A stretch of DNA of 64,000 nucleotides from a virus: the IMG/VR virus record IMGVR_UViG_3300045125_000058, positions 4,265-68,264 of that record. The stretch is one strand, 5' to 3'. Shown here piece by piece: positions 45,863 to 46,560 of the stretch. Under the pieces are notes generated by a model. The model was not told the origin of the DNA, did not search any database, and worked only from the letters and a program-made list of their open reading frames with translations. Positions within the stretch are counted from its first letter, which is position 1, and every line of letters begins with the position of its first letter. The position numbers were made by a program, and so were the translations under genes.

Positions 45863-45935
45863 TGGAGTGTAGCACTAACGGAAGTGCAATCCGCTGTTAA
45901 CGGATCGGTTACAGGTTCGAATCCTGTCACTCCAG
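45863..45935 (+). tRNA. tRNA-Asn(GTT)
   Basis: Acceptor TGGAGTG/CACTCCA, anticodon arm ATCCG-CTGTTAA-CGGAT, T arm ACAGG-TTCGAAT-CCTGT. Confidence 0.92.
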
Positions 45936-45943
45936 TTCAAAAT

Positions 45944-46016
45944 GCCACTTTAGGCTCAATGGTAGAGCCTTGCTTTTGTAAAGCAGAGGTTGCGGGTTCG
46001 AATCCCACAGGTGGCT
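45944..46016 (+). tRNA. tRNA-Thr(TGT)
   Basis: Acceptor GCCACTT/AGGTGGC, D stem GGCTC/GAGCC, anticodon loop TTTGTAA, TTCGAAT T loop. Confidence 0.9.
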
Positions 46017-46097
46017 TGAGTATACTCAAGCGGTCAACGAGGGCACACTGTAAATGTGCTGGCATTGCCTACGAGGGTTCGAATCTCTCTGCTCGCA
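46016..46097 (+). tRNA. tRNA-Tyr(GTA), long variable arm
   Basis: Anticodon arm GCACA-CTGTAAA-TGTGC, variable hairpin GGCA-TT-GCC, T arm GAGGG-TTCGAAT-CTCTC; position 1 mismatched (T instead of G). Confidence 0.85.
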
Positions 46098-46104
46098 CTA
46101 AATA
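46098..46104 (+). promoter_or_regulatory. Late-promoter variant CTAAATA upstream of the tRNA-like element and tmRNA
   Basis: Same motif precedes many structural ORFs in this window; 7 nt before the element at 46112. Confidence 0.5.
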
Positions 46105-46111
46105 ATTGTAT

Positions 46112-46208
46112 GCGTAGTCCAGCAGCGAGATAATCGTCCGGCTGATAGGATCTTTGATCTAGAACAGAGATCTGATAAGCAATAGAGGTGCAAGTCCTCC
46201 ACTACGCT
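46112..46208 (+). ncRNA. Atypical 97-nt tRNA-like element (CUA in an 8-nt loop)
   Basis: Perfect acceptor GCGTAGT/ACTACGC, T-like arm GAGG-TGCAAGT-CCTC, 9-bp stem GGATCTTTG/CAGAGATCT around ATCTAGAA, non-canonical D arm. Confidence 0.65.
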
Positions 46209-46445
46209 TTGGTATTGTTGATATCAGATAGAAATGTGTATGACACGGGAGTTCGAATCTCCCCGGATCCACTATACGGGTCCGACAGGCATCGATCAGC
46301 GCAAAGTATTAAAGAAGGAGATACCCGACACGGGTAACAAGTGTCGTAAATAAACAGTTGCAACAACAAAAGCCGCACCATTGCGGATGGCTGCTTAAAG
46401 CAGTGGGGTTTCCCGGTTTTCCCGCGACTGAAAAACCGGGATTTT
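46209..46445 (+). ncRNA. ssrA: Circularly permuted (two-piece) tmRNA
   Basis: T arm GGGAG-TTCGAAT-CTCCC and 3' acceptor CGGATCC-A (46247-46271) come before the 5' strand GGGTCCG (46278), giving G3:U70 and A73; pseudoknot TACCC/GGGTA + CGACAC/GTGTCG; tag GCA..TAA 46360-46398 = ATTKAAPLRMAA*. Confidence 0.88.
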
Positions 46446-46447
46446 TT
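46411..46447 (+). terminator. Intrinsic terminator ending the tmRNA coding piece
   Basis: TCCCGGTTTT/AAAACCGGGA stem followed by TTTTTT. Confidence 0.8.
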
Positions 46448-46552: not shown

Positions 46553-46560
46553 TATAAATA
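46553..46560 (+). promoter_or_regulatory. T4 late promoter TATAAATA
   Basis: Exact consensus before ATG 46564/46573. Confidence 0.65.

Follow-up and report, generated by a model that had tools for sequence, protein, structure and literature searches.

Permuted tmRNAs in bacteria and phages

Two-piece tmRNAs are already known from cultured phages, and spacers of 5-6 nt between the two pieces are known from cultured phages and Prochlorococcus. The Prochlorococcus tmRNA appears as two molecules on a Northern blot (PMC1242208), and 53 distinct permuted tmRNAs, 50 of them aquatic, have been described in phage isolates (Buchholz et al. 2022, PMC9004378). A preliminary description of the locus studied here, which lies in a 64,000-nt stretch of viral DNA (the window), suggested that a two-piece tmRNA would be unusual for a phage, a view overtaken by these published genes. 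What the locus adds is a corrected tag, two pseudoknots backed by covariation and a sizeable, unannotated family of freshwater phage tmRNAs with a comparative structure model.

Among cultured phages, the T4-like cyanophages S-CAM1 (NC_020837), S-CAM3 and Sf-FS3 carry a tmRNA gene that, like the window gene, is permuted, lies in a tRNA cluster and does not encode CCA. The spacer of S-CAM1 and Sf-FS3 is 5 nt long (CUCAU) and that of the window gene 6 nt (CUAUAC), and the permuted tmRNAs of cyanophages and other phage isolates are presumed to depend on host SmpB, as is the window gene. Sequence similarity between the cyanophage tmRNAs and the window gene does not extend beyond the tRNA-like domain, however, and the cyanophage tags are 21-23 residues long and cyanobacteria-like (…NNIVAFSR…), whereas the predicted tag of the window gene has 8 residues and ends in MAA. 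The OM43 phage Melnitz, among the phages with permuted tmRNAs in PMC9004378, differs in having a riboswitch, which the window gene lacks. In the public records the permuted tmRNAs of S-CAM1 (L358, NC_020837.1 108369-109200) and Sf-FS3 (L359, PV340856.1 20518-21400) are unannotated, the stretch being either blank or overlapped by a "hypothetical protein".

In bacteria, the two-piece tmRNAs of Prochlorococcus and marine Synechococcus (cyano_tmRNA, RF01851) also have a 6-nt spacer and no encoded CCA, the spacer reading CUAUUU in many Prochlorococcus genomes. These are the cell's own ssrA, and their tag and mRNA-like domain are unrelated to those of the window gene. The best-scoring subtype model, matched over its full length, was that of the betaproteobacterial genes of Rhodocyclales and some Burkholderiales (beta_tmRNA, RF01850), with 34.2 bits for the window and 56.5 bits for relative L262; with relatives at 25-56 bits, all scores fall below the gathering score of 84, and the window gene is not a member of that family. 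The betaproteobacterial tmRNA shares the layout after the tag, namely a stop hairpin, GGGG and a hairpin that doubles as terminator, but its genes encode CCA, its tags are different and some of its spacers are 7 nt long (CCACUGC). When a nhmmer profile of the window gene's family was compared with 120 bacterial permuted-tmRNA loci, it matched the tRNA-like domain only, at 17 bits or less. Because the bacterial similarity is limited to this domain, no donor lineage can be named.

The source phage and its tRNA cluster

The window belongs to an IMG/VR record of 88 kb with a CheckV completeness of ~42%. The record is that of an uncultured T4-like freshwater phage. Its T4-type genes include those for DNA polymerase, an SbcC-like nuclease, ribonucleotide reductase and collagen-like tail fibres, and among cultured phages the polymerase is closest to those of T4-like Synechococcus phages, with an amino-acid identity of only 41-43%. 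The stretch is present mostly in metagenomes from lakes and other fresh waters, together with one freshwater sediment and one soil sample.

All RNA features described here lie on the + strand and are numbered by their position in the window. An array of three tRNA genes, Asn-GUU, Thr-UGU and Tyr-GUA, occupies 45863-46098 and was identified by ARAGORN, Rfam and sequence. None of the three encodes CCA; the gaps between them are 0-8 nt, and the Thr and Tyr genes share one base in the ARAGORN call. As the array begins 6 nt past the stop codon of the ribonucleotide reductase gene, it probably forms one transcript with the tmRNA, and no sigma-70-like promoter was found upstream of the tmRNA on the + strand between it and the array. 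A T4-type late promoter motif, TATAAATA, is present at 46553-46560, directly 3' of the tmRNA terminator.

An unclassified tRNA-like RNA at 46112-46199 adjoins the acceptor piece directly on its 5' side. Its acceptor stem is 7 bp long and its T-arm-like hairpin reads GAGG-UGCAAGU-CCUC, and it drew no call from ARAGORN or Rfam. It occurs among the relatives in two sequence variants, whose acceptor stems differ by compensatory changes, and it is found at the matching relative position in 26 of the 89 family loci, beside tmRNAs with short and with long spacers. A conserved CUA anticodon in this RNA was considered and is unsupported, the loop of the long central hairpin differing between the variants. 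The RNA is a feature separate from the tmRNA and possibly serves as a processing handle.

The permuted tmRNA and its tRNA-like domain

A circularly permuted tmRNA was called at 46211-46447 both by ARAGORN and by the permuted model of Rfam. The latter (tmRNA_permuted, RF04321) matched positions 46211-46398 over its full length (model positions 1-213) with 52.2 bits (E 2.5e-7, whole window), compared with a gathering score of 47 bits. These calls agree with the preliminary description, which had reported a permuted tmRNA with all of its hallmarks. The positions it assigned to the T arm, the acceptor strands, the spacer, the D-loop-like stretch, P2, the stop hairpin and the terminator all match the sequence, and its sizes for the two pieces (~65 nt and ~165 nt) are right, the predicted values being ~64 nt with CCA and ~170 nt. 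The gene order is permuted in that the acceptor piece, which ends with 46264-71, is followed by the 6 nt CUAUAC and only then by the coding piece, which starts with 46278-84.

The acceptor piece (46211-46271) is 61 nt long, or 64 nt with CCA added, and is delimited by the Rfam alignment, conservation and covariation; conservation among relatives starts precisely at 46211. It comprises the 5' strand of the closing helix (46211-16), the 5' strand of P2 (46235-43), the T arm GGGAG-UUCGAAU-CUCCC (46247-46263), the acceptor 3' strand CGGAUCC (46264-70) and the discriminator A (46271). The intervening segment CUAUAC (46272-46277), placed by sequence and alignment, is predicted to be removed at maturation. 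The 5' part of the coding piece (46278-46325) begins with the acceptor 5' strand GGGUCCG (46278-84), whose G3 pairs with U70, and continues with a D-loop analogue containing GG (46285-95). P2 is formed by UGUGU-A-UGA (46235-43) with UCA-GCGCA (46296-46303), and the closing helix by 46211-16 with 46320-25. In this part of the molecule the G:U pair is invariant, and both P2 and the closing helix show compensatory changes. A middle helix of 46224-26 with 46310-12, suggested by Rfam and RNAalifold, is weak and poorly supported.

The tRNA-like domain is complete in its 7-bp acceptor stem, its T arm with a UUCGAAU loop and its D-loop analogue. The alanine identity elements G3:U70 and A73 are present in the window, where CCA is not encoded, and they are invariant both in the aligned relatives (10/10) and in the family loci called by ARAGORN (66/66).

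A freshwater phage family maintained by selection

Sixteen viral contigs carry an exact 25-mer of the T arm and acceptor strand; they are near-identical, and ARAGORN calls a permuted tmRNA in all of them. A scan for the stop-hairpin signature found the family on at least 119 uncultured viral contigs. Of the 92 distinct family loci, 66 are called as permuted tmRNAs by ARAGORN, all with a 5' GGG and all with U70-C71-C72-A73, and the relatives score 63-85 bits with RF04321. Over 50,697 phage records a blastn search with the region matched the tRNAs only, so that cultured phages lack the family, and a scan of 185,579 bacterial and archaeal species representatives for the 3' signature gave one match, on a 9.5-kb contig. 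Among the matches listed, the family is confined to freshwater phage contigs, and this large freshwater family joins the known marine phage tmRNAs. The single match among the species representatives (L357, JBEGUW010000083.1) was placed in a river-water MAG of the Bacteroidota; the contig is probably phage DNA in the wrong bin.

When ten distinct sequences were aligned, 98% of cells were paired over the closing helix, P2, T arm, acceptor stem and 46326-46 hairpin, compared with 35-47% in slid-register controls. Twelve base pairs had changed on both sides, and none of 500 shuffles reached the observed covariation. Compensatory changes were seen in the closing helix, P2, the T arm, the acceptor stem and stem 1 of the pseudoknot PK1. 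The gene is far beyond chance, and its elements are maintained by selection across a large phage family.

Pseudoknot PK1 and the tag reading frame

The coding piece continues with PK1 (46326-46361), which covaries among 64 distinct relatives. Its stem 1 pairs CGACAC (46326-31) with GUGUCG (46341-46), and its stem 2 pairs GUAAC (46334-38), in the loop of the 46326-46 hairpin, with GUUGC (46357-61), so that the predicted fold is a classical H-type pseudoknot. Across the 64 relatives, 99% of cells are paired, five of nine pairs have changed on both sides and 0/500 shuffles score as high. Stem 2 taken by itself is likewise 99% paired; in three of its five pairs both bases have changed, and matched insertions occur (GUCAAC with GUUGGC). 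An H-type pseudoknot just before the resume codon had been proposed in the preliminary description and is borne out by this covariation, provided that translation resumes at GCC 46372 rather than at GCA 46360. A different PK1, also put forward earlier, in which CCC 46324-26 pairs with GGG 46332-34, was rejected; its Cs belong to the covarying closing helix and stem 1, and the pairing is also broken in relatives L042 and L087.

Between PK1 and the tag lies a single-stranded, A-rich stretch of 10 nt (46362-46371). Its length varies in the relatives, the distance from PK1 to the GCY codon being 10 nt in 29 of the 64 distinct sequences and 11 nt in the other 35, and because of this one-base variation the stretch is not read as codons. 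The E. coli tmRNA has a spacer of ~10-11 nt before the resume codon and an A at position -4, an arrangement that the window would fit.

The tag frame runs from GCC to UAA (46372-46398, with the stop at 46396-98) and encodes AAPLRMAA. Its GCY start is constant in register, and the frame is kept in 64/64 relatives. Read from GCC or GCU, every member has exactly eight residues ending in MAA, where the canonical ending is LAA. The commonest tags are AAPMRMAA, ANQLAMAA, ANELAMAA, AAPMAMAA and ANYMAMAA, and many begin with the usual AN. By eye, the tag-coding sequence can form a hairpin at 46373-46386 (CCGCA with UGCGG), which begins at the second base of the resume codon. That the proposed resume codon lies in a covarying hairpin counts against the model. 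Hairpins at the same place in relatives pair UUGCUAA with UUAGCAA or UUGCCAA with UUGGCAA, in a register that differs between clades.

The stop hairpin, the 3' pseudoknot and the terminator

The stop codon UAA lies in the loop of a hairpin, GCUGCU/AGCAGU (46390-46404), read from the sequence. Since this hairpin does not vary among family members, and since the search pattern included it, it offers no covariation to use. It is followed at 46405-46447 by a structure that contains the terminator and that is predicted to be a second pseudoknot. In stem 1, which is invariant, GGGG (46405-08) pairs with UCCC (46420-23); in stem 2, which covaries, CCCGGUUU (46412-19), located in the loop between the stem-1 strands, pairs with AAACCGGG (46433-40). 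A conserved single strand, GCGACUGAA (46424-32), separates the two stems on the 3' side, and a U run closes the gene at 46442-47.

More than 20 covarying versions of stem 2 occur in the family, among them GGUC/GACC, GAUUC/GAAUC, GGUUC/GAACC, GAUCC/GGAUC and CUGG/CCAG. The mean helix length is 5.8, compared with 4.6 when the partners are dealt among the sequences. In the clade of the window, stem 2 and the U run double as the predicted terminator, whereas other clades of the family have a separate terminator hairpin.

Proposed function and alternative readings

From these features we consider it likely that the locus is a functional two-piece tmRNA gene, the last of a tRNA-cluster transcript, whose RNA is matured by host enzymes and directs resumption at GCC 46372. 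After transcription at the end of the phage tRNA cluster, host RNase P would cut 5' of G46278, freeing the coding piece and opening the loop of 7 nt at the end of the acceptor stem. RNase Z or exonucleases would trim the 6-nt trailer from the acceptor piece, to which the host CCA-adding enzyme would then add CCA. Host CCA addition would be needed in any case, since the three phage tRNAs also lack an encoded CCA; no CCA-adding enzyme was found in the 88-kb, ~42% complete record. T4 tRNA precursors are likewise tightly packed and dependent on host CCA addition. The two pieces would be held together by the acceptor stem, P2 and the closing helix, and host AlaRS would charge the molecule via G3:U70 and A73. 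The tmRNA would enter stalled ribosomes together with SmpB, which is presumably that of the host: the absence of smpB noted in the preliminary description extends to the whole of the ~42% complete record, which gave no PF01668 match. Translation would then resume at GCC 46372, adding Ala and AAPLRMAA, with the likely benefit that ribosomes are kept free during phage breakdown of host mRNA.

The choice of resume codon bears directly on the tag. ARAGORN places it at GCA 46360, which gives the 12-residue tag ATTKAAPLRMAA, also reported in a companion to the preliminary description; on such a reading the GUUGC pairing of PK1 would be fortuitous or transient. GCA 46360 matches the ARAGORN resume consensus, lies 13 nt past the PK1 hairpin and is in frame in the window and its closest relatives, where a common variant, ANIKAAPMRMAA, begins with the usual AN. 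In 35 of the 64 relatives, however, the conserved stop is not in frame with GCA, the stretch from GCA to GCY varying by one base, and the GC of GCA 46360 sits in the covarying stem 2 of PK1. For 40 of the 66 relatives that it calls, ARAGORN itself gives a tag of 8 residues. We regard resumption at GCA as unlikely; the resume codon is probably GCC 46372 with the tag AAPLRMAA, and the ARAGORN start and the 12-residue tag are probably wrong, the latter by four residues too many. Automatic tag calls can thus begin four codons early when a GCA falls inside the pseudoknot.

Two further readings would deny the gene a tagging function altogether. The RNA might be a tRNA-like decoy, sequestering the SmpB of the host or blocking trans-translation there, a role that has been proposed for the tmRNA of mycobacteriophage DS6A, which consists of the tRNA domain only. 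Phage tmRNA-like RNAs that inhibit the host tmRNA have been discussed (PMC4131195, PMC11915505), and the lack of smpB in the record would suit such a role, but a decoy would need neither a tag frame of 8 codons that always ends in MAA nor a stop hairpin or PK1, all of which are kept family-wide, and we consider it very unlikely. It is more improbable still, to the point of being hardly credible, that the gene is a decaying passenger, a host ssrA copy acquired by the phage and now out of use. Phages do acquire host tRNA and tmRNA genes, and the best subtype model is a betaproteobacterial one. The 3' signature nevertheless occurs only once among the bacterial and archaeal representatives, and then on a phage-like contig, and the compensatory changes and intact identity elements across more than 100 phage contigs indicate purifying selection in phages.

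Beyond the functional two-piece tmRNA favored here lies a broader interpretation that we hold to be rather doubtful. Rather than a passive copy of a host ssrA, this family seen only in phages could represent a rescue system that evolved there, with its own short tag (Ala plus AAPLRMAA in the window; ANQLAMAA and AAPMRMAA in relatives) that would meet a fate unlike that of the host tag. It could possibly constitute a permutation lineage besides the three bacterial ones. The 6-nt spacer of the window would be the most reduced form in a family whose other spacers carry conserved, unclassified structured RNA modules.

Spacer length and spacer modules

Spacers were surveyed with a pattern consisting of the T loop, an acceptor 3' strand ending in UCCA, 0-30 nt, and GGG with the D-loop analogue. 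The 120 bacterial loci returned include 34 with 6-nt spacers, mostly from Prochlorococcus (CUAUUU, without CCA), and 14 with 7-nt spacers, mostly from Accumulibacter and other Rhodocyclaceae (CCACUGC). Spacers of 4-8 nt make up 83 of the 133 viral matches and are distributed across dozens of distinct tRNA-like domains. In these scans the most frequent class, both in Prochlorococcus genes and in viral contigs, is a spacer of 5-7 nt with no encoded CCA, and with 5 nt in S-CAM1 and Sf-FS3 the 6-nt spacer is not the oddity that it was first taken for. The question of how so short a linker could be matured, also raised in the preliminary description, is not peculiar to this gene or new, because spacers in Prochlorococcus, S-CAM1 and Sf-FS3 are equally short, and those of Prochlorococcus are known to work.

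Within the family, spacers fall into classes of 5-6, 11-13, 71-99 and 122-167 nt, of which the window has the minimal form; its close relatives have CUUUAC or UUCAC, and the 16-contig set contains UUCAC, CUUUAC and CUAUAC. In four freshwater metatranscriptome runs only contigs of long-spacer relatives were present, at least one of them with the spacer retained, though such contigs show no RNA ends and may derive from DNA carry-over. No riboswitch or ribozyme was found by Rfam E-value search in the window gene or in the long spacers of relatives, and neither of the two modules present in those spacers matches any Rfam family. Both modules are conserved. Spacers of 122-167 nt (e.g., L275, L272) contain one of them, and spacers of 71-99 nt, found in some 30 or more relatives (L262:890-985, L269:6282-6352 and ~30 other loci), contain the other. 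In this structured module the loop CUGCAA of a covarying hairpin could base-pair with UUGCAG, which lies in another hairpin loop, and a long perfect hairpin often comes next.
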